Shown here piece by piece: positions 36,398-58,401 of a DNA stretch of 64,000 nt. The first letter of the stretch is position 1; each line of letters starts with the position of its first letter. A model generated the notes under the pieces. That model saw only the letters and a list, made by a program, of their open reading frames with translations. It was not told the origin of the DNA and ran no database searches. The position numbers and the translations under genes were made by a program. This stretch comes from Candidatus Poribacteria bacterium (GTDB taxonomy: Bacteria; Poribacteria; WGA-4E; WGA-3G): assembly GCA_012270795.1 (NCBI GenBank), contig JAAXHO010000197.1, positions 41,813-105,812 on the forward strand, in the 5' to 3' direction.

Positions 36398-37897
36398 CTA
36401 CCAACGGGTATAGAGTAGCACCTCTGAGATGATGAGTTGAAGGACAAGCAAACCTGCAACCCAGAAAAAATCACGTTTGGAACGCGTTGTGAGGTATTTT
36501 GCAACGGGAATGACAAAAAACGGCACCATGAAAATCCAGATACGTTCCACCTCCATCGTGAACCAAGTTGAGAATGTGAAATAGAGTAGCGTTATTAGGA
36601 AACCGATGATAAAAGTATCCGACTTGTCATGACGTAATATCCAAGGTGTGCGGGTTGTTGCCTGTTCTGATGCTGGGACTGTTGTGTTTTGTTTCCATTC
36701 CTTGAATGTTTTTACAAGTTGACGCAGCCAGACAGTTGTTATTGGAATACCTACCCCCATCAAGAATGCAAAGAGATTCGCTATACTCAAATAAAAATAG
36801 AGATCAAGTCTATGGTAACCTGTTCCTCCCATACCCTGTTCATCTCTTTTAATAGATGCCCAAAGTGCTTCAAAGGGTTGGAAACCTGTGAGTATGAACA
36901 ATAGCACGTAGAATCCAACGAATCCGATAGAAGCATATAACAACATCTTTAGGTATTGCTTAAACCGGTATCTCTCTAATAATGCAATAACGCACAGAAA
37001 GACCCCAATTACCACCGTTGAATAGGTCATAAACATCCCGAGTGCAAGCGAAAGGCCTGTTAGGAGACTATAAGGACGAAATTTTGTCAATGCGGTTTCT
37101 GGATCAATTTCCTTGTGTCTTGCTTCGTAAAACAGGTAGAGACTGAGAATTGGAAACACGCTAAAAGGTCCGTCCATAGATGTCGTTGTAAACATGACAA
37201 AGTTTGGTGTGACAAGGAATAGCAGCAATGCGCAAAGCGCGACCTTCTGATCGTATAGACGTTCCGCGAGTTTATAGATAGGGACGATGACGAGTGTGGT
37301 GAAAAGAACTGATGCCAACGATGCGGATATAAGATTGTAACCAAATACTTTGCTGACAATCCATAGGAAGACAACACCTCCTGGCGGATGGGTGCGTGTA
37401 TGTCCAGTTAGCGTATCAAACAGATAAGGTTTGCTAAAATCACGCAAAAATGTACGGAGACCGATTTCCTCTAAACGGGGTACATCCTCGTAGTATTCCA
37501 ATCCTGATCGTGTGTAAGGATAGAAAAGTGTCAAAATCTGTTCATTTTCTATTTCGCGGAAACCATCAATTTGCGCGACGCTGATATTGATAGCAATGAA
37601 GCACACAAACGCAATCAATATCAACTTGCGGTAACTGATGTTGTTTGAATGGATATATCTATAGCAAAGAAAGAGGAAACCTATGCATATAACAAGGGCG
37701 GGAAGAATCCACAAACTCAGATTGACTTCAGGTATGGCATAGTATGGGACGAAGTCTCTGCGGTGCTTTACTGCCCCCAGCGAGAGACTTGCTTCGCGCA
37801 TAATGATTACCATTATCTTGTGGTATAACAAGAAAAACAGCGCGACTATAAAAACTTGCCCAATTATAGATCTGATTGCTTTTTGAAAGTATTGCAT
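36398..37897 (-). CDS. Polytopic membrane protein, putative GT-C family glycosyltransferase (PMT_2/ArnT-like)
   Basis: About 12 predicted TM segments. The first periplasmic loop carries DVPRLEEIGLRTF...THPPGGVVF, resembling the acidic loop and 'EKPPL'-type motif of GT39/GT83 enzymes. Confidence 0.5.
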   Translation of the reverse strand: MQYFQKAIRSIIGQVFIVALFFLLYHKIMVIIMREASLSLGAVKHRRDFVPYYAIPEVNLSLWILPALVICIGFLFLCYRYIHSNNISYRKLILIAFVCFIAINISVAQIDGFREIENEQILTLFYPYTRSGLEYYEDVPRLEEIGLRTFLRDFSKPYLFDTLTGHTRTHPPGGVVFLWIVSKVFGYNLISASLASVLFTTLVIVPIYKLAERLYDQKVALCALLLFLVTPNFVMFTTTSMDGPFSVFPILSLYLFYEARHKEIDPETALTKFRPYSLLTGLSLALGMFMTYSTVVIGVFLCVIALLERYRFKQYLKMLLYASIGFVGFYVLLFILTGFQPFEALWASIKRDEQGMGGTGYHRLDLYFYLSIANLFAFLMGVGIPITTVWLRQLVKTFKEWKQNTTVPASEQATTRTPWILRHDKSDTFIIGFLITLLYFTFSTWFTMEVERIWIFMVPFFVIPVAKYLTTRSKRDFFWVAGLLVLQLIISEVLLYTRW

Positions 37898-40381: not shown

Positions 40382-41371
40382 ATGAAAAAGAGTTTTACTA
40401 TATATCTTACCATTGGTGCCCTCTTTTACTGCATCATACTACTGACTTTCTGGATACGGATTCAGGGTGTACATAGACTACCCGCAGGGCAGTTTACTGA
40501 AAACGATGCCTATCTTTATCACTGGCACGCAAACATTATAGCGAAACACGGCGTGTTGCCTGCAAAGGATATGCACCGTTGGTTACCTAATGGAAGAGAT
40601 AACGGGTTACTTCTTTCGCTCTATTCCTACGCTATCGCTTACATACATAAAGCGGTGGCGTGGGCATTTCCAAAACTCACAATTAATCACATCCAACTTT
40701 ACCTCCCCGTATTCTGTTTTACCTTAGGACTTGGTGTGCTGTTTGTCTTTCTCACTCGCGTTCACGGACTGCTCTTTGCAACTGTCGTAGGTGTGCTATT
40801 GGCAACGCTACCCGGCAGCATTGAACGCAGTGCTGCAGGTTTTGGCGACAGAGACGCATGGTGCTGGATGTTCGGCATACTTGCTGTTATCAGTTACCTA
40901 TGGAAAGAGGTTATGCAGCCAGGTCGACGCAGGTTTGTTGCAACAATCCTTTCTGGATTCATCGTTTTTTTGGGTGGACTTTCCTGGGAAGCATTCGGAC
41001 TCTTTGTGCTGATAATACTCTGTATTGAGATATGGAAATTCTGTACCAACGAAACTGAACAGCACTTAAAAGAGTATCTAATATGGATACTCATGTTTGT
41101 TCCATTGCTCTACCTTTTAGCTCCCGCTTATCGTCGCGGTTACAGTTACTGGACGCACCTCGCTGTCTTAGTGCTCTTGCCACCCCTTGTGGTTTTCACA
41201 ATACGCGGAGCAAGGTATCTACTGCTTACTTATGTTGAGTTTCTGCAACCACATGCTCGAAAACTTGCATGGGGACTTACACTCGGTGCCATTGTATTAG
41301 GTATCGGTTATTTTTTTCCCAATCCAGCACGTTTGAAACAACCGTCTTCGCGCTTAAAGAGAGTCGACTGA
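40382..41371 (+). CDS. STT3/AglB/PglB-like oligosaccharyltransferase, N-terminal membrane half
   Basis: TM1 is followed by ENDAYLYHWHANII...LPAKDMHRWLPNGRD, which resembles the first external-loop motif of STT3/AglB. A DxD-like GFGDRD follows, with ~8 TM segments. The stop overlaps the next start (TGATG). Confidence 0.5.
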   Translation: MKKSFTIYLTIGALFYCIILLTFWIRIQGVHRLPAGQFTENDAYLYHWHANIIAKHGVLPAKDMHRWLPNGRDNGLLLSLYSYAIAYIHKAVAWAFPKLTINHIQLYLPVFCFTLGLGVLFVFLTRVHGLLFATVVGVLLATLPGSIERSAAGFGDRDAWCWMFGILAVISYLWKEVMQPGRRRFVATILSGFIVFLGGLSWEAFGLFVLIILCIEIWKFCTNETEQHLKEYLIWILMFVPLLYLLAPAYRRGYSYWTHLAVLVLLPPLVVFTIRGARYLLLTYVEFLQPHARKLAWGLTLGAIVLGIGYFFPNPARLKQPSSRLKRVD

Positions 41372-42774
41372 TGAAAGACATGACAGAACTCGTTGATCCA
41401 CATTATGGATATTGGACAGGGAGATATGGAACTGTTTTTATCTTAGGTAGCTTCGGTTTGATAATCACAAGTCTCCATCTTTGGAAACGGAATGGATTAC
41501 CTCTTGCTCTCGCGCTTTCTTTATTTTCCGCAACAACCTTTTTCCGATGGCAAATCAGCGGATGGATAGGAGAAAATACGTGCAACACGCTGTTTTTGAT
41601 TTCATTCGGATTCGCCGTTGGCTGTTTTGCCATTGCATCATTCCGAAAAGATACAGAGAAAAGTGAATTGGTAACGCTTGCTATACTTGCTTGGTTTCTC
41701 TTATGGGTAGCACTCTCGCGGGGAGGAAAACGCTATGACTTTTTTATTGGTCTTCCACTTGCTTACGGCACTGCATGGATCCTCTCTGTTTCACCTGGCT
41801 ACATCTTACAAAAACTTAAAAATGCAAAAATTCTGTATCCCCATGTTAACGAACAATGGGTTACGATTTGCTTTGCAATTATTGTGTTAATTCCAGTTTT
41901 CTTTTGGAATCCTCTCGGTGGTCATGCAAATCGGGCAATTGCAGCTGCAGCAACCTGGCGCAACCCTACCCCTGGTGAAGGAACACCACTTAGCAAAACT
42001 TATGAATGGATGAAAAATACACTACCGCAAGACACTGTGGTCGCTGCAAACTGGAGTTACGGAAGCCAACTTAATGTTTTCGGAGGAGTCAAAACTATTA
42101 CAGATCAGGACACTTTCCTCCCACATTGGATTCATCTCTATTATAGACACGTCTACTGCGCGCAATCTGAGCGCGAAGCATTAGAATTTCTTAAAACTCA
42201 CGGTGTAACACACCTCATGCTCAGAGAATGGGGAATAGTAAATCGTGCATATACCTATTCTTATATCGGCAGTGATGAAAAAGGCGATAAGAGATTCGGG
42301 TTCACACCTCTTGTTAAGGACAGGAACAAACAGCTCACAAGTCCAAAAAATATTCGATTTCGTTTTCAATATATAAGTACAGTGGGAATAGAGGTTAAAA
42401 ACCCGCCTGATCCCTACTTAAATGCGCGTCTAAAAACAGGAGCTGTCGCACGACTTCCTTATGTAATGTTCAAAGGTACTAAACGCCATGTTCCTCAATT
42501 ACCTAGCTATAGAAACCCACACGGTGGTGTAATTCTCTATTACGATCAAAATGGAACTTTGGAAAAAGCATATCATATTTCCAGTCGTGGTTGGAAATGT
42601 CTTGCTGTGCAGCTCTATTTTCTCGGTGAGATGTCTGATACGTTTGTTCCTGTCTACCCCGAAGAAGAAAATAATACAACCTCTGTCAAAGTTTGGAAAA
42701 TTAACTATCCATCTGATATAGAAGCAAATCCTAAATATCTTGTGACAGAACCCGAAACCTCTCATGAAAAATGA
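41371..42774 (+). CDS. STT3/AglB/PglB-like oligosaccharyltransferase, C-terminal half (TM segments + periplasmic domain) with divergent motifs
   Basis: About 6 TM segments, then a soluble domain. SVSP lies in a loop (compare SVSE/TIxE), and ANWSYGSQL lies where WWDYG is expected. The gene is translationally coupled to the previous ORF. Confidence 0.5.
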   Translation: MKDMTELVDPHYGYWTGRYGTVFILGSFGLIITSLHLWKRNGLPLALALSLFSATTFFRWQISGWIGENTCNTLFLISFGFAVGCFAIASFRKDTEKSELVTLAILAWFLLWVALSRGGKRYDFFIGLPLAYGTAWILSVSPGYILQKLKNAKILYPHVNEQWVTICFAIIVLIPVFFWNPLGGHANRAIAAAATWRNPTPGEGTPLSKTYEWMKNTLPQDTVVAANWSYGSQLNVFGGVKTITDQDTFLPHWIHLYYRHVYCAQSEREALEFLKTHGVTHLMLREWGIVNRAYTYSYIGSDEKGDKRFGFTPLVKDRNKQLTSPKNIRFRFQYISTVGIEVKNPPDPYLNARLKTGAVARLPYVMFKGTKRHVPQLPSYRNPHGGVILYYDQNGTLEKAYHISSRGWKCLAVQLYFLGEMSDTFVPVYPEEENNTTSVKVWKINYPSDIEANPKYLVTEPETSHEK

Positions 42775-43525
42775 AACCATTGAAGTCTCTATCGTCATGC
42801 CGTGTCTCAACGAAGAAGAAACACTTGGCATATGTATTGAAAAGGCACAATCCACCCTCAAATCTTTAGGGTATTCAGGTGAAGTTGTCATCGCTGATAA
42901 CGGTTCCATTGATAACTCCGTTGAAATTGCCAAACGTCTCGGTGCACGCGTTGTGCATCAACAGACACGAGGTTACGGTGCAGCTTATCTTGCTGGTTTT
43001 GCTGCTGCACAGGGGCAATACATCATCATGGGAGACTCCGATGATACATACGACTTCACAGATTTAGAACGATTCATAACACCCCTTCAAAATGGATATA
43101 ACCTCGTTATCGGCAATCGGTTTAAAGGTAAGATTTTACCGGGTGCTATGCCGTGGGCAAGACGTTATATCGGCAACCCAATACTTTCTGGAATGCTGCG
43201 CTTGTTATTTGGTACATATATATCAGATTCACACTGCGGGATGCGATCATTTACTACCGATGCATACAAACGGATGGACTTAAAAACAACAGGCATGGAA
43301 TTCGCCTCTGAAATGGTTATCAAAGCAGTCCAGTCTGAGTTGAAAATACTTGAAATTCCAATCACCTATCACCCCCGTGGCGGCGAGTCAAAACTTAATG
43401 CGATTCGGGACGCATGGCGACATATCCTGTTTATGATAAAATATAAACTCTCCAACCAGACAACACATGATAAAAAATCAGCAACTTCCACAGATCCCAA
43501 AAAAAACAATGGATCGCTTCCTTGA
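42764..43525 (+). CDS. Family 2 glycosyltransferase (polyprenyl-phosphate sugar synthase, DPM1/GtrB-like)
   Basis: VSIVMPCLNEE...ADNGSIDNS...GDSDDTY (DxD) and the overall GT2 pattern are present. Its start overlaps the previous stop. Confidence 0.8.
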   Translation: MKNETIEVSIVMPCLNEEETLGICIEKAQSTLKSLGYSGEVVIADNGSIDNSVEIAKRLGARVVHQQTRGYGAAYLAGFAAAQGQYIIMGDSDDTYDFTDLERFITPLQNGYNLVIGNRFKGKILPGAMPWARRYIGNPILSGMLRLLFGTYISDSHCGMRSFTTDAYKRMDLKTTGMEFASEMVIKAVQSELKILEIPITYHPRGGESKLNAIRDAWRHILFMIKYKLSNQTTHDKKSATSTDPKKNNGSLP

Positions 43526-47036: not shown

Positions 47037-50000
47037 TTACTTTGTGTCAGATTCAGGGGGCGGCCCATTGAGTGCATTTGAAACCAAGACGAGATCGGCA
47101 AGATCAACAATTCCATCTTTATTTACATCTGCGCTGTTATCTTTACCGACCTGTCCAAGACGGGATGCAACGAATTCAAGGTCTGCAGCATCTAACTGCC
47201 AGTCGCGGTTTGCATCTTCTGGGATACGTGGTGGTTCAACGATCCATGCACGATCAGCAATCGGGCGCGAATTTTTACCGTCTCTGTGTGTAAGAACAGC
47301 ATCTGTTAGTGTCAAAGTTACGTCAGTGCGTATTAGTACTTCAAAAGTGACGGTAGCGATTGTGCCATTGTCTATGGTGGAATTGGCAGTCGCGTTGCCT
47401 GTGAGTGTGATGGAATTTTCTGCTACGACTGGGGGTGGAGTTTTCCAGTTTCTTGATTTTTGGTTGCCTTCGGTGTTAGGAATATATCGGAGTGCTGTTG
47501 CATCATACTTCAACTTGAATTGGTATCCTGTGACATTTTGCCCATCGGTCATGTTAATGTTAAAGGTCAATTGTTTGCCTGTGGGTGGAGATTGGACAGA
47601 GAGAGGGGTGATGTTTAGGCGCGTGTCAGGTTTTGATTTCATTTGCCATAAAAGCACAGTGCCGTCTGTGCTACCACTCACAAGCGTTGTGCCGTCCGGT
47701 GAAAACGCAAGCGAGGTGACCGGAAGTGTATGGTTGGTTGGGATGGTCCGACTTTCTCCCGTTTCTACATCCCAAATTTTAATAATCCAATTGTAATTTG
47801 ATAGAACTATAGCTGCGAGTGTGGTGCCATCCGGTGAAAACATCATAGAGTTTGGTTTTATTGAGCTGACTTTGAAGGTCGATTTAAGTTTACTAGTACT
47901 TGTTTCCCGAAGTTTGATGGAGGCTTCACTGTAGTGGGCGAATGTATTCCCATCAGGTGAGAATGCAACTGAGGGCACTGAATGGGTATTCTCTGTAAAT
48001 GCAGCGAATTGTTCACCAGTTTTTATATGCCATAATCGGATCGTCATATCGGGTTTTTCAACATCCTGATTTGGTCTACTTATACCTGCAAGTGTATTGC
48101 CATCCGGCGAGAATGTGGTGGAAGTAATATACCCTGTGGGGACCCAGAGAGTTGCTTTATGTTCTCCAGTATGCGTCCTTAACAGTGGCATTGAAGGACC
48201 TCTTGAACTGGCAAAAGTTTCACCATCCGGAGCAAACGCTAAAGCATGCACATTTTTTGAACTAAAGATTCGTTTGTGTTGTTGGGTTTGGATATTCCAT
48301 AAGAAAGTCCCCTCACGCCAACTGTTACTTGCCAGTGTTCGGTTGTCTGGTAAAAACAAAACGGACGAAATAGGGGATTCATGACCTTTGAGTATTCCTT
48401 TGTGTTGTCGGTTTTGCAGATCCCATAACTGAATTGTCCTATCGTGGACATATTCATCTTCACTTGCGGTAGCAAGGATGGTATTATCCGGGGAAACAGC
48501 AACAGAAGTGACTGCTGTAGTATGTCCTTTAAGGATAAGGCGTGTTTCTCTGGTTTTCACGTCCCATAAACGTATTTCCCCGCGAATACCTGCACTTGCA
48601 AGGGTTTTTCCATCAGGTGAAAACGCGACCGAATAAAGCATTTCTGTGTGTCCTTCTAATGTCGCTATGATATTGCCCGTATCTGCATCCCAGAGGCGAA
48701 CGGTTTTGTCAAGGCTTACGCTCGCAAGGGTTTGCCCATCATTAGAGAACTCCATACCAACACGGGCACCTCCCTTATAGTATGATGTCGTAGCCCCATT
48801 ATCCGCAAACCTTACGGAAGCAACCGGGGCTGTGTGTCCTATGAGTTTATTTTGTAGTTCTTCAGTGTGTGCGTTCAATATTTGAATTGCCTTTGCGTCC
48901 TCGTTCCGTCCTAACATTACAGTGGCGCGTCGTGTACCATCCGGTGAATTAATGTAGTTGGAACCAGGCATTGAGTATAACCAACGCCATTTCTTATCAA
49001 GTGTTTTGGAATCTCTATCAATGGATTTTAGATATTTGCCAGTGTGCGGATCCCATACCATTATGATTTCGTAAGATGACCCCGAGTTTTCATTCCGACT
49101 CCTCGCAGCAAGCGTTCTGCCGTCTGGTGAAAATGCTATGGCTTTGATTCTTGCCTCGTTATTGAGGATCTTTAGCAATTCGCCTGTATGCGGATTCCAC
49201 AAGCGCATGGTGCGATCATAACTACCACTCGCAAGGAGATCGCCATAAGGAGAAATGGCTATACACGTAACAGGTTTCGTATGTCCTGCTAATAGAGCAA
49301 GTTCCTTACCAGTGGTCGCGTCATAAATCCAAATACCTGCAGAACCGCCTACCATGATCCACTTGTTATCTGGGGAAAACATTATATCATTGACAGTTCC
49401 TTTTCCTAATCGAGCTTTTGCCTCTTTCGGCAGCGAAAATTGGGTGTGATCTGCTGCAGCGTCCGACCATGGCGGTGCAACAACGGAACCCCTCACAACG
49501 ATAGGACTAGCGAGGCTGCCATCCCCCTTTTCAAGCCGTACTCTCGGTAGGTTGAGGGTTGAAGGTTTCGTTGCAATGACTTCAAACGTAACACTTGCAA
49601 GCGTGCCATCGCCATTGCTGGGTTCTGCAGTAGTTTTTGATACAAGTTTCACACGATTTGGATACACGTCTTTGGTGGAAAAAGATGCATCTGTGGAAAG
49701 ATAATCCCCTTTTTCACTTGAAACATAGCGGAGGGCAGTGGTATCAAAATCCATCGTGACCTGATATCCTTTAACGTTCTTTGCACCAACAACATTAACG
49801 TTTAATTTGAGCTTTTCACCTAGGGCAGGGGATTGAATTGGAGAGGGTGATATACGAACAATGGCATTCGTATCAACAAAAGGTGTTGCGTCCCAGAAAA
49901 TGACAGTGCCATCAAGACTGCTGCTAATGAGGGTTTCATCAGTAGTGGAGAATATCAGTGAAATTATTTCGGCTGTGTGCCCAACTAAAGTATCTCTGTG

Positions 50001-50159
50001 ATATCCAGTTGCTGTATTCCACAGTCGAATGGTACGATCCTTACTTCCACTTGCAAGTGTTTTGCCATCAGTAGAAAATGCTAACACACTGATGCTAGCT
50101 GAAACTCTTTGTGTCCGATGCCGAAAATTGATGTGTAAGTGCCCGTTTTTAAATTCCAT
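47037..50159 (-). CDS. Giant WD40-repeat protein with two cohesin-like beta-sandwich modules and a C-terminal dockerin; probably the C-terminal ~1040 aa of a longer frameshifted gene
   Basis: Many WD repeats (GHT..V.S.AFSPDG..LAS.S.D.T..LW). Two ~130-aa modules (…GYQVTMDFDTTALRYVSSEKGDYLS…, …GYQFKLKYDATALRYIP…) are homologous to one in the 51734 gene. The C-terminal DANRDWQLDAADLEFV...DVNKDGIVDLADLVLV is dockerin type I-like. Confidence 0.75.
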   Translation of the reverse strand: MEFKNGHLHINFRHRTQRVSASISVLAFSTDGKTLASGSKDRTIRLWNTATGYHRDTLVGHTAEIISLIFSTTDETLISSSLDGTVIFWDATPFVDTNAIVRISPSPIQSPALGEKLKLNVNVVGAKNVKGYQVTMDFDTTALRYVSSEKGDYLSTDASFSTKDVYPNRVKLVSKTTAEPSNGDGTLASVTFEVIATKPSTLNLPRVRLEKGDGSLASPIVVRGSVVAPPWSDAAADHTQFSLPKEAKARLGKGTVNDIMFSPDNKWIMVGGSAGIWIYDATTGKELALLAGHTKPVTCIAISPYGDLLASGSYDRTMRLWNPHTGELLKILNNEARIKAIAFSPDGRTLAARSRNENSGSSYEIIMVWDPHTGKYLKSIDRDSKTLDKKWRWLYSMPGSNYINSPDGTRRATVMLGRNEDAKAIQILNAHTEELQNKLIGHTAPVASVRFADNGATTSYYKGGARVGMEFSNDGQTLASVSLDKTVRLWDADTGNIIATLEGHTEMLYSVAFSPDGKTLASAGIRGEIRLWDVKTRETRLILKGHTTAVTSVAVSPDNTILATASEDEYVHDRTIQLWDLQNRQHKGILKGHESPISSVLFLPDNRTLASNSWREGTFLWNIQTQQHKRIFSSKNVHALAFAPDGETFASSRGPSMPLLRTHTGEHKATLWVPTGYITSTTFSPDGNTLAGISRPNQDVEKPDMTIRLWHIKTGEQFAAFTENTHSVPSVAFSPDGNTFAHYSEASIKLRETSTSKLKSTFKVSSIKPNSMMFSPDGTTLAAIVLSNYNWIIKIWDVETGESRTIPTNHTLPVTSLAFSPDGTTLVSGSTDGTVLLWQMKSKPDTRLNITPLSVQSPPTGKQLTFNINMTDGQNVTGYQFKLKYDATALRYIPNTEGNQKSRNWKTPPPVVAENSITLTGNATANSTIDNGTIATVTFEVLIRTDVTLTLTDAVLTHRDGKNSRPIADRAWIVEPPRIPEDANRDWQLDAADLEFVASRLGQVGKDNSADVNKDGIVDLADLVLVSNALNGPPPESDTK

Positions 50160-51737
50160 AGGTGGACTTTACCATAGTTGGTTCCGCTTGCAAGCATTGA
50201 GTTGTCTGGTGAGAATGCTAATACTTCTGTGAATCTATCTTTTTTGGAAATGGTTGCTTTATGTTGTGCAGTAACAGTGTCCCACAACTGAATGCTAGAG
50301 TCCCTACCCATCGTAGCAAGCATGCTACCATCTTCAGAGAATACCATCAAGGTAACAGGGTCTGTATGCTTTTTCAGGATTGCTTTTTGTTTACCTGTCT
50401 GTGTATCCCACAATTCCACTGCACCATCCCTTTTGCCCAAGGCAAGTATTGTTTCATCTGGCGACAATGTTCTTGAATAGGCACTCCTTGTTGAAATAAC
50501 TTCATCAACGGTTAGTGTGCCTTCTTTTAGAAGTGTCCCTGTGCGCGCATCCCACAATAGATGTTCTTTCGCACTTTTGCTTGAGAACGTTACTCCATCT
50601 TGTGAAAAGGCAATAGAGGTAATTTCTTCTGTATGTTCAGTAAGACTTGCTTTCTGTTTGAAAGTATCAACATCCCACAACTGTATTTCTCTATTTCCTG
50701 TTGTTGTAAGTGTCTTGTTATCTGGAGACAGTGCTATAAGCGGCATGTATAGTGTATGAAAAAGTGTGCTTTTATATTGGTCTGTTTGTGCATCCCAGAA
50801 CCGAATTGTCCCGTCAGCACTGCCAGATGTAAGTACACCTCTGTCTGGTGAAAATGTTAAAGTGGTAATACTTTCAGTATGTCCAGCAAGTGTTTCCAAT
50901 AGTGTACCTGTTTTTGGGTTCCATAGTCGTATTGTATTGTCCCATCCGCCACTGGCAAGTATTACACCATTTGGAGAGAATGCGACTGCATTGATACTTC
51001 TGGTATGTTCTGTGAGTGTCTCTAATAGTTTACCTGTTTTTGGGTTCCACAGGTGAATTGTATTGTCCCATCCACCACTGGCAAGTATTGCTCCATCTGG
51101 TAAGAATGCGACTGCAGAAATTGGTTTTTTATTCCCAGTGAGGATTCCCTTGCTACTTCCTGACGGAACGTCCCACAATCGAATTGTTCCGTCTGTATTT
51201 CCACGTGCCAGCATCTTTCCATCCGGCGAATACGCAAGAGCATTGCGATTGCCATTGTGTTCTGTAATCTTATTTTTCCGTTTGAGTGTATCCGCATCCC
51301 ACAACTGAATGTGATGACCTACGATTGCTATTGTTTTGCCATCTGGCGAAAACGTTACTGTACTCATATTTCCTGTGAGAGTGGTTTTATGTTTCCCAGT
51401 TTTAGGATTCCATAGTCGGACTGTTCTATCATAACTTGCACTTGCAAGAGTCTCACCATCTGGTGAAAACGCAACTGCCGTTACTGGCTGCGTGTGTCCT
51501 GTTAATGAAGAAAAGTTCTTCCCATGTATGTGCATCATATAACCATGTCCCGATATAAGTTCCTACTGCAAGCAGTTTACCATCAGGCGAATACGCCATA
51601 TCAGTGATCTGTCCTCTACCGATACGCGCGATGGCATTTTCAGGGAGTGCCCATTGAGACGAATCTTCAGCAAAACCATTTGATAAACAGACAAAAGATA
51701 ACAGCAATGTGGCAAATAGAACACTTATAGTTTTCAT
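50081..51737 (-). pseudogene. N-terminal part (signal peptide + WD40 repeats) of the same giant WD40 gene, broken by single-base frameshifts at ~51527 and ~50100-50125
   Basis: ORF 51453-51737 (signal peptide ...LYDAHTWEEL...) and ORF 50081-51538 (MMHIHGKNFSSLTGHTQ...) join as ...LYDAHTGKNFSSLTGHTQPV if one T is removed (aca[t]ggg). ORF 50081-51538 ends ...GIGHKEFQLASVC*, while the overlapping frame gives HRTQRVSASISVLAFSTDGK, which is the start of ORF 47037-50159. Confidence 0.6.
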
Positions 51738-54346
51738 TTTTTCGTCGTTTCACTACTATTGACTGTGGCACGCAAACGTTTTCCCTCTTTGTCTGAGAGA
51801 ATTAAGTTAGCGATATTCAAGGGTAGTGGTTTATCAGTGACAACCTCATACGTTACGGTTGCAAGTGTGCCGTTCCCGTTACCTACTCCTGTGATTGCAG
51901 TAGATACAAGTGTCACCTGATTTTTCTCAACAATAGGTTTCGCAAAGAATGCGTCTTCGGACAAATAGTCGCCCTTGTTGCTGGAAATGTATCGGAGTGC
52001 ACTTGCATCATATTGAACAGTTATATGATAACCAGCAACATTTTCACCACCCTCAATTTCAATATTAAACGTCAAATGTTTTCCAATTGTTGGAGATGCT
52101 ACCGACGAAGGTGTTATTTTTGCGATCACGTTTTCGTCAACAATCGGAATTGGCTTCCATAACACAACTGTTTGATCATAACCTGCACTTGCAAGCATGT
52201 TGCCATCTCCGGTAAACGCTAACGAAGTGATACGCCGACTGTGCCCTTTTAAAGTTGCTTTGTGTTGCCGGAAACCGACATCCCACACCTCAATTTGGTA
52301 CCCACTGGTACTTGCAAGGAGTGTGCCATCTGGCGAAAACGCTAACGCGTTCACATCACCCCACGAACTTTCTTTAGGCATCAAACTATTTTCACCTGTT
52401 GCGGTATCCCACAATTGAACTGTACTATCCCTTTCACCACCCCCACTTGCAAGGAGTGTACCATCTGGCGAAAACGCTAAGGCGGTTACACGCGAAGTAT
52501 GCCCTATATACGTGGTTTTTAGCTTTTTTGTGCGCGTGTCCCACAGATCAATTGTAGCGTTTCCTTTGCTACCACTGGTCGCGAGAGTTTCTCCATCTGG
52601 CGAAAACGCAAAGGCAGAAACACCATACGGGTGATCTTTAAGGATGCTGTCGTATTTTTTTGTCTTTATATTCCACAATTGAATCCCTCGTATGTTCGTA
52701 TAGCGGAAAGAATTTACACTGGCGAGTGTTAAACCGTCATAAGAGAAAACTACTGCATTTACTGGAGAGACTCCATCAGCTGAATCCGGTTGTTCCTTAA
52801 GTGTCTCAAGGTGTAGGTTGGTTTTTGTACTCCATAATCGCACCGTTCCATCCTTGCTGGCACTTGCGATCATTTTTCCATCAGTTGAGAACGCTATGTC
52901 ATTGATGGCGGCTGAATGTCCTTTAAGACTTGCGCGGTATTTGCCTGTGTTTCCATCAAATAACCAGATTCTGGCATCTCCGATTCCGCATGCCAGCATG
53001 CCGTCCCCATTGGAGGCAACAAAGGCGGGTTGATAGGCTTGTCCGAAGTTACTTCTATATGGTATTGTCCCTGTCTCTTTTCCTGTAGAGATATTCCATA
53101 ACAGAATTACTTGTCCATAATCGCGCGGGTCTTTATCAAGTCTACTACTCATCATTGCAAATGTTTGACCATCAGGTGAGAAGCGAAGTGTGTTTACATT
53201 AGCATTGATAGCAAGTGTTGCAACTTTGTTTCCTCTAATTGTTTCCCAGAGTTGAATGCTGCCCTTTTCTTGATTTTCTTGAGCTGCAAGTATTCTGCCA
53301 TCCGCTGACAACGCTGTAGGAAAGAAACGTCCATCGGTATCGGTAAGAATAGTGGTGCGTTGTCGTCCGGTGCGCGTATCCCATATCTGAATTTCTGGGG
53401 AATTCTCTAAACGGCAAATTAGTATTTCGCTATTTTGTGAAAACGATTCATAAGTTGAAGTTTGATTCAGATCGCTTTCAAGAATAGCAAGTTCCTTCCG
53501 GGTGGCTGCATCCCACAAAACTGTTTTGTTTTGATCTTTACTTACGAAACGCGTCCCGTTGGGTGACAAGTGCAAGCTGCGGTAGGTGTCCTTTAAGTCA
53601 ATTCGCTTGCCTTCTCCGGTTTCTGTATTCCAAGAACGGTAAGTTCCATCTGTGCTGCTACTTATGAGTGTGATGTTGTCTGGAGCATAGACGAGTCGGG
53701 TGATCCATCCTGTATCGGTTACAGGAATTGTCTTAATGGATTTTCCAGTGATAACATCCCAAATCTGGACTGTGCCATCTGTAGATATTTTGGGTTGAGA
53801 TTCAACTAAATCTGACCAGCGGGTGGCTAAACCGCCGCTACCACGTCGCTCCGATGGGACCTTCCCACTTGCACCTGTTGCAAGTTTTTTACTGTCTGGT
53901 GAAAATGCTAAGACATTGGTATTACCTAAATGCCCCGTAAGTGTCGCACGATGTTCAAAAGTATGAGCATCCCACAATCGGACTGTCTTATCAAGGCTAC
54001 CGCTTGCGATGGTTTTTCCATCTGGTGAAAACATTACAGAAGTGATTGAGTCCGTATGTCCAGTAAGTAAAGCGAGTTCGTCCCCTGTGTGTGCATCGTG
54101 AATCCAAATTCCGATTATTGGACTAACAACAGCAAGCCGCGTGCCATCCGGTGAAAATACGAAATTAGGTTCTACTTGTCTATCACCGCGATACACTACT
54201 TGTCTATCACCACCATAACTGATACGCATTTTTGCACCTTCAGGCAATGCCCGAAGAGGTGGTGATGGACCGCTACCGAAAACTATCGGTAGCAATGTTA
54301 TTGAGATCATCAATAGAGATAGGGTAAAAAATGTTAACTTTTTCAT
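51734..54346 (-). CDS. Secreted WD40-repeat protein with a C-terminal cohesin-like module
   Basis: Signal peptide, ~14+ WD repeats, and a C-terminal module ...NVAGYHITVQYDASALRYISSNKGDYLS...GNGNGTLATVTYEVV... homologous to those in 47037-50159. Confidence 0.8.
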   Translation of the reverse strand: MKKLTFFTLSLLMISITLLPIVFGSGPSPPLRALPEGAKMRISYGGDRQVVYRGDRQVEPNFVFSPDGTRLAVVSPIIGIWIHDAHTGDELALLTGHTDSITSVMFSPDGKTIASGSLDKTVRLWDAHTFEHRATLTGHLGNTNVLAFSPDSKKLATGASGKVPSERRGSGGLATRWSDLVESQPKISTDGTVQIWDVITGKSIKTIPVTDTGWITRLVYAPDNITLISSSTDGTYRSWNTETGEGKRIDLKDTYRSLHLSPNGTRFVSKDQNKTVLWDAATRKELAILESDLNQTSTYESFSQNSEILICRLENSPEIQIWDTRTGRQRTTILTDTDGRFFPTALSADGRILAAQENQEKGSIQLWETIRGNKVATLAINANVNTLRFSPDGQTFAMMSSRLDKDPRDYGQVILLWNISTGKETGTIPYRSNFGQAYQPAFVASNGDGMLACGIGDARIWLFDGNTGKYRASLKGHSAAINDIAFSTDGKMIASASKDGTVRLWSTKTNLHLETLKEQPDSADGVSPVNAVVFSYDGLTLASVNSFRYTNIRGIQLWNIKTKKYDSILKDHPYGVSAFAFSPDGETLATSGSKGNATIDLWDTRTKKLKTTYIGHTSRVTALAFSPDGTLLASGGGERDSTVQLWDTATGENSLMPKESSWGDVNALAFSPDGTLLASTSGYQIEVWDVGFRQHKATLKGHSRRITSLAFTGDGNMLASAGYDQTVVLWKPIPIVDENVIAKITPSSVASPTIGKHLTFNIEIEGGENVAGYHITVQYDASALRYISSNKGDYLSEDAFFAKPIVEKNQVTLVSTAITGVGNGNGTLATVTYEVVTDKPLPLNIANLILSDKEGKRLRATVNSSETTKK

Positions 54347-54912: not shown

Positions 54913-55581
54913 GTGAATAGGATACCTATTATATTTGTTGTTATTATGGTTGTACTTATAGGGTTTAGTGCTTTTGCAGGAACTACACAAGATTTAGGAA
55001 AATGGGAAAAGGGTGAATTGCTCCTTGAAAACTACAGTTTTGAAGATGGTTTAGCAGCGTGGAACTTAGAAGACGGGACGTGTTGTGAGAGAGGGGGACA
55101 GTATACGTGGGAGATTGATGATGACAATTCGCAACATGGAGAACAATGTCTTAAGGTTGTTGGTCTCATAGCGACTGGGACGGCTTGGCATGCGAAGATT
55201 ACACAACAGTCTGTTTCAATGAAAAGCGGGGGGATGTATACCATAATTTTTTGGTCGCGCGCTGAAGAACCGCGCGATGTGAATATAAATATTCAACTAC
55301 AGATGGATCCTTGGACAACCTTTCATGGTCAAGGTAAAACCTTTAATTTAACGACAGACTGGGTAGAATATTCATTCACTTTTACTGCAAACACAGATGT
55401 TGACAAGCAGATGTGGGTCGGTTTAGCGATCGCACAATCGGATGTTGATTTCTGGCTTGATAACTTCCGTTACTTTGAAGGTGAACCGGAAGATGATATG
55501 ACGCTTGAAGAGGTGCTGCCTGTTGATGCCAAAGAAAAGTTAGCAACGCAATGGGCATCTGTGAAGTCGGGTCGTTTCTAA
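54913..55581 (+). CDS. Secreted carbohydrate-binding-module-like protein (CBM4/9-type jelly roll)
   Basis: Signal peptide, then ENYSFEDGLAAWNLEDG...WHAKITQQSVSMKSGGMYTIIFWSRAEEP...FWLDNFRY, resembling CBM_4_9 domains. Confidence 0.55.
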   Translation: MNRIPIIFVVIMVVLIGFSAFAGTTQDLGKWEKGELLLENYSFEDGLAAWNLEDGTCCERGGQYTWEIDDDNSQHGEQCLKVVGLIATGTAWHAKITQQSVSMKSGGMYTIIFWSRAEEPRDVNINIQLQMDPWTTFHGQGKTFNLTTDWVEYSFTFTANTDVDKQMWVGLAIAQSDVDFWLDNFRYFEGEPEDDMTLEEVLPVDAKEKLATQWASVKSGRF

Positions 55582-55648: not shown

Positions 55649-56287
55649 TTACTCAATAATGACTCTTCTAAACGTTAACGATACACGCCGTCCCCGTTGA
55701 TATTTTTTCCCATCCCAAAGATCTGATTTTCTCGGTGCAATACCGTGCAACCACTCATATCTCGCTTCACCACTTAGAACAACAAGACTCCTTGGTGCCA
55801 GCCAGGCTGGTATCTTTTGCGTCTTATCATCTTTGTTTGTGAAATCCATGATACAACCCGAACCTAAACTCAAAGAAACAATCGTGTCCTTGAAACATGG
55901 CTCACAATCAATGTGTCCTGCTATGCCTTGCCCTGGTTTATATTCATTGATGATAACTTGATCCGCTGTTTCAGGCATGTGACCATCTTCGCGTAATTCT
56001 ACGCTTAACTTTTCCAACCAATCTGGTAAATCACCAATAAGCATATCACGGTTCACTTTCCGCGCTTTGTAATCATACTTAAAACCGTAATGCTGAACTC
56101 TACGTTTTAGGTCATCAAGCCACGTTTGTTCGTCAATTTTCGCCATTAACCGATTATGTTGATATTCGGTTATATAGTCTGATATATACTTTAATCCCTT
56201 GATTACATCACGCGCTTTTTGATTCTGTGGAATAAGTTGTGGTTTAGGAGTTTGTTGTTCTATTGTTGAAAATAGTTCTAATTGCAT
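55649..56287 (-). CDS. AlkB-family Fe(II)/2-oxoglutarate dioxygenase (ALKBH-like), copy 1
   Basis: IINEYKPGQGIAGHIDCE (HxD), IVSLSLGSGCIMDF, LVVLSGEARYEWLHGI (His), and RVSLTFRRV (Arg pair) align with the E. coli AlkB core (INRYAPGAKLSLHQDKDE / IVSVSLGLP / ESRLFYHGI / RYNLTFRQ). A 60% identical paralog lies at 57766-58401. Confidence 0.8.
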   Translation of the reverse strand: MQLELFSTIEQQTPKPQLIPQNQKARDVIKGLKYISDYITEYQHNRLMAKIDEQTWLDDLKRRVQHYGFKYDYKARKVNRDMLIGDLPDWLEKLSVELREDGHMPETADQVIINEYKPGQGIAGHIDCEPCFKDTIVSLSLGSGCIMDFTNKDDKTQKIPAWLAPRSLVVLSGEARYEWLHGIAPRKSDLWDGKKYQRGRRVSLTFRRVIIE

Positions 56288-57332: not shown

Positions 57333-57743
57333 TCATAGTTCTGCTGATAACATTTCGGTAACCAGAGTAGTTAAACTTACGCCTTTTTGCTCTGCCCGTT
57401 GCAAAAGCTGGATGTGGATGTGTTCAGGAATTTGTTGAGCCCAGTCTCCATTGAATACATCGGCAGAACCAGGTTGAGGGATTTTGTCACCGAACTCTTT
57501 CGCTGTTTCTATCCAGCAAAACATAGCGTCTTTTCCATTCTCGATCGTTTCTTCAATCGTGTCTCCATCAGACATACACCCTGGTAAATCGGGGAATTCG
57601 ATTAAGTAACCTCCACCTTCCTCTGAGGGCAATACACTCATAAGAAATGGATATCTCGGTAGATCGGGAAATTCGATTAAATAGTCTCTATCTTCCTCTG
57701 AGGGCAATACACTCATAAGAAATGGATATTTTAATTCGTTCAT
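57333..57743 (-). CDS. HicB-family (UPF0150) protein with a C-terminal ribbon-helix-helix domain; carries an in-frame 75-bp tandem duplication at the N-terminus
   Basis: YLIEFPDLPGCMSDGDTIEETIENGKDAMFCWIE...KIPQP matches the HicB N-domain, and ...IHIQLLQRAEQKGVSLTTLVTEMLS is RHH-like. YPFLMSVLPSEE(DRD/GGG)YLIEFPDLP is encoded twice by a 75-bp direct repeat (~57600-57750). No hicA is visible. Confidence 0.65.
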   Translation of the reverse strand: MNELKYPFLMSVLPSEEDRDYLIEFPDLPRYPFLMSVLPSEEGGGYLIEFPDLPGCMSDGDTIEETIENGKDAMFCWIETAKEFGDKIPQPGSADVFNGDWAQQIPEHIHIQLLQRAEQKGVSLTTLVTEMLSAEL

Positions 57744-57765: not shown

Positions 57766-58401
57766 TTATACCAACCTTCTGAAGCTGAGGGATATGCGTC
57801 GTTGGCGTGGATATTTGCGTCCTTCCCACATATCCGATTTTCTGGAGGGTATCCCGTGCATCCATCTGTTTTTTGCGTCTGCAGTTAAGACAGTCAAACT
57901 TCTTGGTGCTAACCAGATTGGGACTTTCCTTGTTTTATCTTTTACACTTGTCAAATCCATCACACAACTTGAGTTTAAACTCAAAATAGCAATGGTGTCC
58001 ATGAAACATGCTTCTTTATCGGTATGGTCTCCGATGCCTTGTCCGGGTTCATATTCACTCACAAGCACCTGATTTGCGATTTTTGGCATGTGGCCATCTT
58101 TATTCAATTTCATACAAAGCCTGTTCACCCATTCTGGGAATGTAGCAATCGGCTTTTTCTGCTCTGCTTGTTGGTCGTTGAAGTTGTAACTTTGACCGTA
58201 ATGTTGAACACGGCGTTGATAAAAAGTACTCCATTGTTGTTTGTCTATATGATTTATCAACCAATCATGTTGTACTTCAGTGAGATAATCAGCAATGTAT
58301 TTTAGGCCGCGGACGGTCTCAGCAGCCTGTTGATTCGTCGGCAACGGTTGAGGTTGTGCAAATTTATTATCTAAGAGAGGAAACAGGGATATTTGTTCCA
58401 T
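57766..58401 (-). CDS. AlkB-family Fe(II)/2-oxoglutarate dioxygenase (ALKBH-like), copy 2
   Basis: LVSEYEPGQGIGDHTDKE (HxD), ILSLNSSCVMDL, LTVLTADAKNRWMHGI, and RISLSFRRL. Collinear with copy 1. Confidence 0.8.
   Translation of the reverse strand: MEQISLFPLLDNKFAQPQPLPTNQQAAETVRGLKYIADYLTEVQHDWLINHIDKQQWSTFYQRRVQHYGQSYNFNDQQAEQKKPIATFPEWVNRLCMKLNKDGHMPKIANQVLVSEYEPGQGIGDHTDKEACFMDTIAILSLNSSCVMDLTSVKDKTRKVPIWLAPRSLTVLTADAKNRWMHGIPSRKSDMWEGRKYPRQRRISLSFRRLV

Follow-up and report, generated by a model that had tools for sequence, protein, structure and literature searches.

How the eukaryote-like repeat proteins of bacteria such as the Poribacteria could be physically organised is the question raised by the locus described here; such proteins are a genomic hallmark of sponge symbionts, and Poribacteria are a candidate phylum mainly known from sponges. 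The locus lies in a 64,000-nt stretch of a Candidatus Poribacteria genome, hereafter the window (assembly GCA_012270795.1, contig JAAXHO010000197.1, positions 41,813 to 105,812; part of the 126-kb ENA scaffold ROBB19-1_SAMN11878272_METAG-scaffold_38). Between positions 47037 and 54346 of the window, four minus-strand open reading frames (ORFs; 54346..51734, 870 aa; 51737..51453, 94 aa; 51538..50081, 485 aa; and 50159..47037, 1040 aa) encode long series of WD40 repeats joined to cohesin and dockerin modules. An initial annotation, made from the letters alone, had read them as two genes, one of them fragmented, with signal-peptide-like N termini; the ORFs are as it described, and the fragments align to one intact orthologue. 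We call the intact gene A and the fragmented one B, and we think it fairly probable that the two encode a component of a non-cellulosomal cohesin–dockerin network assembling eukaryote-like repeat proteins. Because cohesins and a dockerin are present on A and B and enzymes are absent, the result would probably be a non-enzymatic protein scaffold.

Tandem WD40 Propellers Joined to Cohesins and a Terminal Dockerin

Gene A (51734..54346, minus strand) is intact and encodes an 870-aa protein made of a predicted signal peptide, a tandem WD40 propeller of ~15 blades, and a C-terminal cohesin; the identical protein is present on 5 contig records. The signal peptide, MKKLTFFTLSLLMISITLLPIVFGS (aa 1-25; 54272..54346), was read from the sequence and appears as a low-confidence helix in the AlphaFold2 (AF2) model; by eye, the N termini of both A and B have a Sec-type look, with a basic n-region, a hydrophobic core, and a small-residue cleavage site. 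The motif LPEGAKMRISYG (54212..54247), conserved in an alignment of 43 A-type proteins, opens WD40 unit 1 (aa ~33-732; 52151..54250), for which AF2 strands, 15 xWD motifs, and Foldseek matches indicate ~15 blades in two propellers. The AF2 model of A, built with the 43-sequence alignment (pLDDT 81.5, pTM 0.82), contains ~60 strands up to residue 730 and then a beta-sandwich at residues 736-862, within the segment assigned to the cohesin (aa 733-870; 51737..52150). Tandem propellers lead the Foldseek matches of this model in the PDB, the top one being the 14-blade protein 2ymu from Nostoc (E 3e-42, 30% identity).

The three ORFs of gene B overlap in different frames and, when joined, give a protein of ~1566 aa that aligns over its full length with intact ~1600-aa proteins encoded at the equivalent position in related contigs. 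Rebuilt in this way, B consists of a signal peptide, 14 blades (WD40 unit 2), cohesin 1 (49452..49886), a second head motif, LPKEAKARLGKG, at the front of WD40 unit 3 (47637..49433) with its 13-14 blades, cohesin 2 (47229..47636), a linker of ~8 residues, and the dockerin (47064..47219). WD40 families match all of the long ORFs at very high scores (238-303 bits for PF00400 in Pfam), and the AF2 model of A together with xWD motif counts puts the number of blades at ~15 in unit 1, 14 in unit 2, and ~13-14 in unit 3. The sequence LP(E/K)xAxARxGxG, which had been proposed as the head of each unit, is indeed present three times (54212-54247, 51612-51647, and 49398-49433), each copy opening one WD40 series.

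Since WD40 matches mask other domains, the ~140-aa inserts and the C-terminal tail were scanned separately. Three modules of ~135-145 aa score above the Pfam gathering cut-off of the cohesin family (PF00963, 24.1 bits), at 35.1 bits in A, 43.8 bits for cohesin 1, and 43.1 bits for cohesin 2, and the C-terminal 73 aa of B match Dockerin_1 (PF00404) at 41.5 bits, above the cut-off of 22.9 bits. The profiles thus bear out the earlier description of long WD40 series with three homologous cohesin-like modules and a type-I-like dockerin at the end, and for cohesin 2 the fold agrees as well. A sequence search of the PDB returned only marginal cohesin and dockerin matches (E 1e-4 to 0.7), so a fold search was needed. 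The AF2 model of cohesin 2 plus dockerin (pLDDT 87.9, pTM 0.71) comprises a beta-sandwich and then two helices (model residues 145-152 and 174-185), each behind a calcium loop, and its top 50 Foldseek matches in the PDB are nearly all cohesins (E 6e-9 to 2e-6), spanning types I, II, and III as well as non-cellulosomal examples (C. perfringens, Archaeoglobus). Both dockerin loops, DANRDWQLDAAD (47181-47216) and DVNKDGIVDLAD (47094-47129), retain the calcium-ligand positions D1, N3, D5, D9, and D12. The dockerin is asymmetric, with halves that are ~43% identical and a W at the usual G position of loop 1, unlike the near-symmetric dockerins of other family members.

A Conserved Operon of Poribacteria

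We compared A and B across eight related loci, which represent at least seven genomes of Poribacteria (loci are cited below by L numbers), defining the operon as a gene A of ~860-970 aa (WD40–cohesin) followed directly by a gene B of ~1600 aa with overlapping stop and start codons. In the window the overlap is the ATGA at 51734..51737 (minus strand), in which the stop of A and the start of B share 4 nt. The same arrangement, A and then an intact B of 1599-1614 aa with a 4-nt overlap, recurs in L003 (two copies), L005, L007, L008, L012, and L013; in L009, A is followed by two B genes, and the intact B orthologues overall measure 1599-1627 aa (L003, L005, L007-L009, L012, and L013). Because A and an intact B with this overlap recur across related loci, A–B is, on sequence grounds, a conserved, translationally coupled operon, often in tandem copies. 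In closer relatives, as in the window, the pair lies upstream of an aminotransferase gene and ispG.

A profile of cohesin 2 plus dockerin run over species-representative genomes, a scan that did not return the window's own genome, found 3 loci, all in 'Candidatus Poribacteria bacterium' metagenome-assembled genomes, and all source-named homologues carrying this cohesin are Poribacteria. The organism is diderm, since the window encodes a TonB-dependent receptor.

Relatives That Could Complete a Network

A profile of the three window cohesins, searched among 1.84 billion proteins, retrieved 2272 cluster representatives at E<=1e-3, with 257 at E<=1e-30. The commonest architecture among the best 146 is passenger–cohesin–dockerin–C-terminal domain, and the same set includes proteins with 3-5 cohesins and eight B-type proteins. 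The C-terminal domain is the type A sorting domain of the type IX secretion system (T9SS; TIGR04183, 36.5 bits in a relative, above the cut-off of 23), which is present in 36 of the 133 proteins gathered by searches with A and with the tail of B. Small cohesin-only proteins (150-260 aa) form another group, 74 of 111 consisting of a lipobox, a Pro/Thr/Glu-rich linker, and one cohesin (P0133, P0294-P0351, and others), and for several of these the annotated source is Candidatus Poribacteria. Short queries in word-indexed searches yielded mainly short or fragmentary proteins. Judged by their sequences, the lipoprotein cohesins are candidate membrane anchors for dockerin-bearing proteins. Much larger members are encoded in L011 (1-13227), where multi-cohesin proteins of 3060 aa and 2408 aa are adjacent, with Big_1 and a FlgD_ig/sorting-type C terminus; a phage-type integrase gene is a few kb away from the pair on this 4.7-Mb contig. 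The NCBI pipeline names some members of the family 'cohesin domain-containing protein.'

We regard as improbable a scaffold in which carbohydrate-active enzymes with dockerins are gathered on the cohesins of A and B for cellulosome-like degradation and the propellers are accessory. Neither A nor B has a catalytic or carbohydrate-binding domain among the best 25 of the 55-68 Pfam families matched, and no dockerin-borne catalytic subunit (glycoside hydrolase or similar) is encoded within the window. In ten non-WD40 relatives sampled with Pfam, nine have leucine-rich repeats (LRR), LDL-receptor class B (YWTD) repeats, or both, and in the tenth no passenger could be recognised; no glycoside hydrolase occurs in any of them, and the one peptidase-like match is sub-threshold. 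The dockerin-bearing proteins among the WD40 homologues are again WD40 proteins. These results agree with the initial annotation, which had read the locus as something other than a cellulosome. Recruitment of enzymes would, for its part, fit the reported enrichment of Poribacteria in glycoside hydrolases (PMC8163846) and the possible existence of dockerin-only proteins, which lie outside the survey; it would also fit the small secreted CBM_4_9 protein encoded beside and divergently from A (54913-55581, plus strand), but that gene is not conserved beside the operon in related genomes.

Class-specific profiles divide the modules further. The profile derived from the B dockerin scores B-type dockerins at 79-158 bits vs 29-56 bits for those of the sorting-domain type, and the B-type dockerin is, by sequence, a distinct class. 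Modules of the cohesin 2 class are found in B-type proteins only, always ~8 residues from a B-type dockerin, and the cohesins of lipoproteins and sorting-domain proteins resemble the cohesin of A. The invariable fusion of cohesin 2 to the B-type dockerin and nowhere else, its homogenisation together with the dockerin (see below), and a single-chain AF2 model of the two that is confident overall would suit modules that do not assemble at all, with the cohesins as inert Ig-like spacers and the dockerin as a calcium-stabilised tail, perhaps clasped in cis on cohesin 2. We give this reading a small chance: the dockerin is the most conserved part of B, lipoproteins with a single cohesin and proteins with at least five would make little sense without dockerin binding, and binding has been demonstrated for non-cellulosomal pairs of archaea and clostridia, according to work cited in PMC9012536.

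Old Units, Mosaic Propellers, and Homogenised Connectors

The initial annotation had taken the conserved head motif of the units to indicate recent tandem amplification, and this claim fails. The WD40 units are mutually only 30-34% identical and the three cohesins 35-42%, and at the DNA level the locus shows only a blade period of ~125 nt. Each unit is nearer to its own orthologue in other species than to its sister units; with identities of 30-42%, this makes the triplication ancient. Recent change is visible at the scale of single blades: two adjacent blade pairs are near-identical (88-91% DNA identity; 50902-50989 vs 51028-51115 and 52310-52355 vs 52445-52490), and the remaining copies in those two repeat families reach only 60-72% identity with the reference, which points to local duplication or gene conversion within old repeats.

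Identity to orthologues is graded along the proteins, from 78-93% in the dockerin through 48-83% in the cohesins to 37-79% in the propellers. Comparison between lineages shows the propeller units to be mosaic: in unit 2 the window protein shares 67% identity with L005 and 49% with the second B gene of L003 (L003_B2), and in unit 3 the L003_B2 and L005 proteins are 74% identical to each other, with the window protein 44-46% identical to each. Unit 3 is the most divergent part of B, with 37-46% identity to orthologues and a deletion of ~35 aa. Paralogous B genes within one genome have homogenised ends, cohesin 2 and the dockerin being 92% and 96% identical in L003 and the dockerin 95% identical between B1 and B2 of L009, whereas the propellers of the same paralogues (B1 vs B2) are only 42-46% identical. 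The alignments thus indicate concerted evolution of the connector modules (cohesin 2 plus dockerin) within genomes. Conserved connectors combined with fast-changing binding domains are the pattern expected of a modular display system.

Gene B Is Probably a Recent Pseudogene in the Window Genome

Two breaks divide gene B. Fragment 1 (51453..51737, minus strand as are the others; 94 aa) carries the signal peptide, the head motif LPENAIARIGRG (51612-51647), and the first blade. Frameshift 1 (51501..51515) is a single extra base inside CTTTTCTTCATTAAC relative to the L005 orthologue, as seen in DNA and protein alignments. Fragment 2 (50081..51538; 485 aa) holds most of the 14 blades of WD40 unit 2, and frameshift 2 (50084..50130) is a 7-nt gap vs L005 in the DNA alignment, near 50127, in a variable loop that precedes the stop of this fragment. 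Fragment 3 (47037..50159), a 1040-aa ORF, contains the end of unit 2, cohesin 1, unit 3, cohesin 2, and the dockerin. Both frameshifts are reproducible, in that the fragments occur on 4-5 contig records of differing lengths: the 94-aa fragment 1 recurs identically on 5 records, and an internal-start version of fragment 3 (1016 aa, P0073) is found on 4.

As the orthologues at the equivalent position are intact, B in the window genome is probably a recent pseudogene beside an intact A. Programmed frameshifting could also leave a coding sequence in overlapping ORFs, but we consider it unlikely because the orthologues are single intact ORFs and neither site has a slippery heptamer; a hairpin at 50099-50080 is weak and within chance expectation. 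Fragmented family members are not unique to the window, since in L012 (15609-18232) a further A-like gene, located downstream of the operon, is also split, into ORFs of 628 aa and 232 aa. Fragmented copies in other genomes are compatible with birth-and-death turnover in the family or with errors of long-read assembly.

A Model for Assembly

In the network that we favour, A and B would be exported via their predicted Sec signal peptides, and the dockerin of B would plug into a cohesin, which could be that of A, that of another B, or that of an anchor such as a lipoprotein cohesin. Cohesins left over would take the dockerins of other proteins. The propellers would thereby be gathered into a multi-protein envelope or extracellular scaffold with many protein-binding surfaces, and the operon would be one part of a larger network that also takes in the lipoprotein single cohesins, the multi-cohesin proteins, and the passenger–cohesin–dockerin–T9SS-type sorting domain proteins. 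We infer from the modules that cohesin–dockerin binding would be calcium-dependent; the partner choice, the location (periplasm or surface), and any host-related role in this model are put forward on the same footing.

Two wirings are equally compatible with the sequences. The dockerin of B may bind the cohesin of A, as would suit operon partners that are translationally coupled, one of which, A, has no other means of attachment. Alternatively, the dockerin may bind cohesin 2 or cohesin 1 of another B molecule in trans, which would give chains of B, with the generic-type cohesin of A left to the generic dockerins that sorting-domain proteins carry. A third possibility is that cohesin 2 clasps the dockerin of its own chain in cis, in the manner of an X-module–dockerin pair.

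The anchoring signals bear on where the scaffold would stand, and we treat the self-assembling cell-surface scaffolds that the initial annotation suggested as conjecture. No S-layer homology (SLH) or sortase anchoring was found on A or B among the best 25 of the 55-68 Pfam families, nor in the sampled relatives, and TIGR04183 has no NCBIfam match at the C termini of A and B and no match in the six-frame translation of the window. With Sec-type signal peptides only and no T9SS sorting domain, in a diderm organism, A and B might stay in the periplasm, where the dockerin would tether them to lipoprotein cohesins of either membrane, facing no host. Many lipoprotein cohesins have Asp directly after the lipidated Cys (e.g., LGGC-DEAQQ), which would fit such a location; in E. 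coli this residue causes retention in the inner membrane, a rule not validated for the phylum Poribacteria. Kamke et al. (2014; PMC3909097) did not find Por secretion genes in Poribacteria, which also favours the periplasm. We nevertheless hold a periplasmic scaffold to be rather unlikely: many relatives with the same cohesin–dockerin cassette have the type A sorting domain of the T9SS, which is typically found on proteins that reach the surface or are secreted, and fast mosaic evolution of the propellers suits exposed surfaces better than housekeeping parts of the envelope.

Several observations weigh against the network reading itself. In a diderm organism, A and B carry only Sec-type signal peptides, with neither an anchor nor a signal for outer-membrane sorting, and custom profiles run over six-frame translations found no further cohesin, dockerin, or sorting domain within the 64-kb window. 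With B broken, the system may be inactive in the window strain, and the frameshifts themselves could be shared assembly errors if the 5 records stem from one read set. Finally, the relatives were sampled by cohesin similarity, a survey outside which dockerin-only enzymes fall.

A broader form of the network reading, which we offer only tentatively, is a phylum-wide system of eukaryote-like proteins (an 'ELP-some') in which at least two cohesin–dockerin specificity classes would wire WD40, LRR, and YWTD proteins onto lipoprotein cohesins, multi-cohesin scaffoldins, and T9SS-type sorted anchors. It would form a modular, fast-evolving coat in contact with the animal host, and A–B would be propeller subunits that lack a sorting domain and join by docking alone. 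The network that we favour, in its narrower form too, may be likened to the skeleton of a cellulosome bearing eukaryote-like repeat proteins in place of enzymes.

If the network exists, cohesin–dockerin wiring offers a concrete and testable physical model for the organisation of repeat proteins in sponge symbionts. The modules are small and recombinantly expressible, and arrays of the kind used for cellulosomes could chart which of them pair. Cohesin–dockerin joining, known from enzyme complexes in Gram-positive anaerobes, would then also serve the non-enzymatic display of proteins in a candidate phylum that is diderm, and new orthogonal cohesin–dockerin pairs could become available for protein engineering.

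Neighbouring Genes

Beyond gene A, two paralogous 2-oxoglutarate-Fe(II) oxygenase genes (PF13532, AlkB-like; 55649-56287 and 57766-58401, both minus strand) flank a methyltransferase gene and a HicB-like gene. The latter ORF (57333-57743, minus strand) encodes a HicB-like antitoxin with an internal tandem duplication of ~24 aa, in which YPFLMSVLPSEE...YLIEFPDLP occurs twice. On the other side of the operon lies a glycosylation-type cluster (36398-37897, minus strand; 40382-43525, plus strand) with genes for PMT_2, STT3-like, GT2, and methyltransferase proteins and a 501-aa ORF that has no Pfam match; a PMT_2 gene is also found downstream of ispG in L003 and L005. No tRNA genes were found in the window.

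Comparison with Known Systems

Clostridial cellulosomes (Acetivibrio cellulolyticus ScaA/ScaB, C. thermocellum CipA) have both module families in common with A–B. Cellulosomal cohesins (3l8q, 1qzn, and 3fnk) are among the best structural matches, and sequence identity to solved cohesins is only 11-20%; a dockerin with two calcium loops is likewise shared, and the relatives of A and B include multi-cohesin and anchor proteins, as cellulosomes do. The differences lie in what is carried and how it is held. Cellulosomes have enzymes and a carbohydrate-binding module (CBM) on the scaffold, whereas the A–B scaffold has neither and the passengers of the family are WD40, LRR, and YWTD repeats; they are anchored by SLH domains or sortase, whereas the candidate anchors here are lipoproteins and T9SS-type sorting domains; and here the host is a diderm candidate phylum in which cohesin and dockerin are commonly fused in one cassette. 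Cohesins number two in B and 3-5 or more in relatives, and the CBM_4_9 neighbour is a separate, non-syntenic gene. By its Pfam matches, A–B lacks two defining features of a cellulosome, dockerin-borne enzymes and SLH/sortase anchoring, and no CBM lies on A or B.

The WD40 part of A resembles the 'highly repetitive propeller' of Nostoc punctiforme (2ymu) in forming two propellers of ~7 blades and in having near-identical adjacent blades in places. The Foldseek alignment of 2ymu (577 residues) covers the propellers of A and nothing else, and we know of no signal peptide, cohesin, or dockerin in that protein.

Within the phylum, Kamke et al. (2014; PMC3909097) described WD40 proteins as abundant in Poribacteria, many with a signal peptide and the Por-type C-terminal domain TIGR04183; the window proteins lack this Por-type domain. 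The initial annotation had stated that such combinations are described in some symbiotic lineages; that study does not mention cohesins or dockerins, and our literature search found no paper linking these modules to Poribacteria or sponge symbionts.

Further parallels are the non-cellulosomal cohesins and dockerins of Archaeoglobus fulgidus, the toxin complexes of C. perfringens, and the archaea of the anaerobic methanotrophic (ANME) groups (PMC9012536, in which Peer et al. 2009 is cited); such modules have been proposed to help organise the space outside the cell (PMC9012536). In these systems, as here, the modules serve beyond cellulose degradation and some proteins combine one dockerin with several cohesins (PMC9012536), and the fold search with cohesin 2 plus dockerin matched the non-cellulosomal structures 2xdh, 2jh2, and 2vo8. 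The passengers described for these systems are substrate-binding proteins, S-layer domains, toxins, and glycosidases (PMC9012536), and in the literature on non-cellulosomal modules we found no description of a systematic fusion to WD40 tandem propellers and other eukaryote-like repeats or of a conserved A–B operon. By its modules, A–B belongs among the non-cellulosomal cohesin–dockerin systems and differs from them in its passengers and in its fused cassette.

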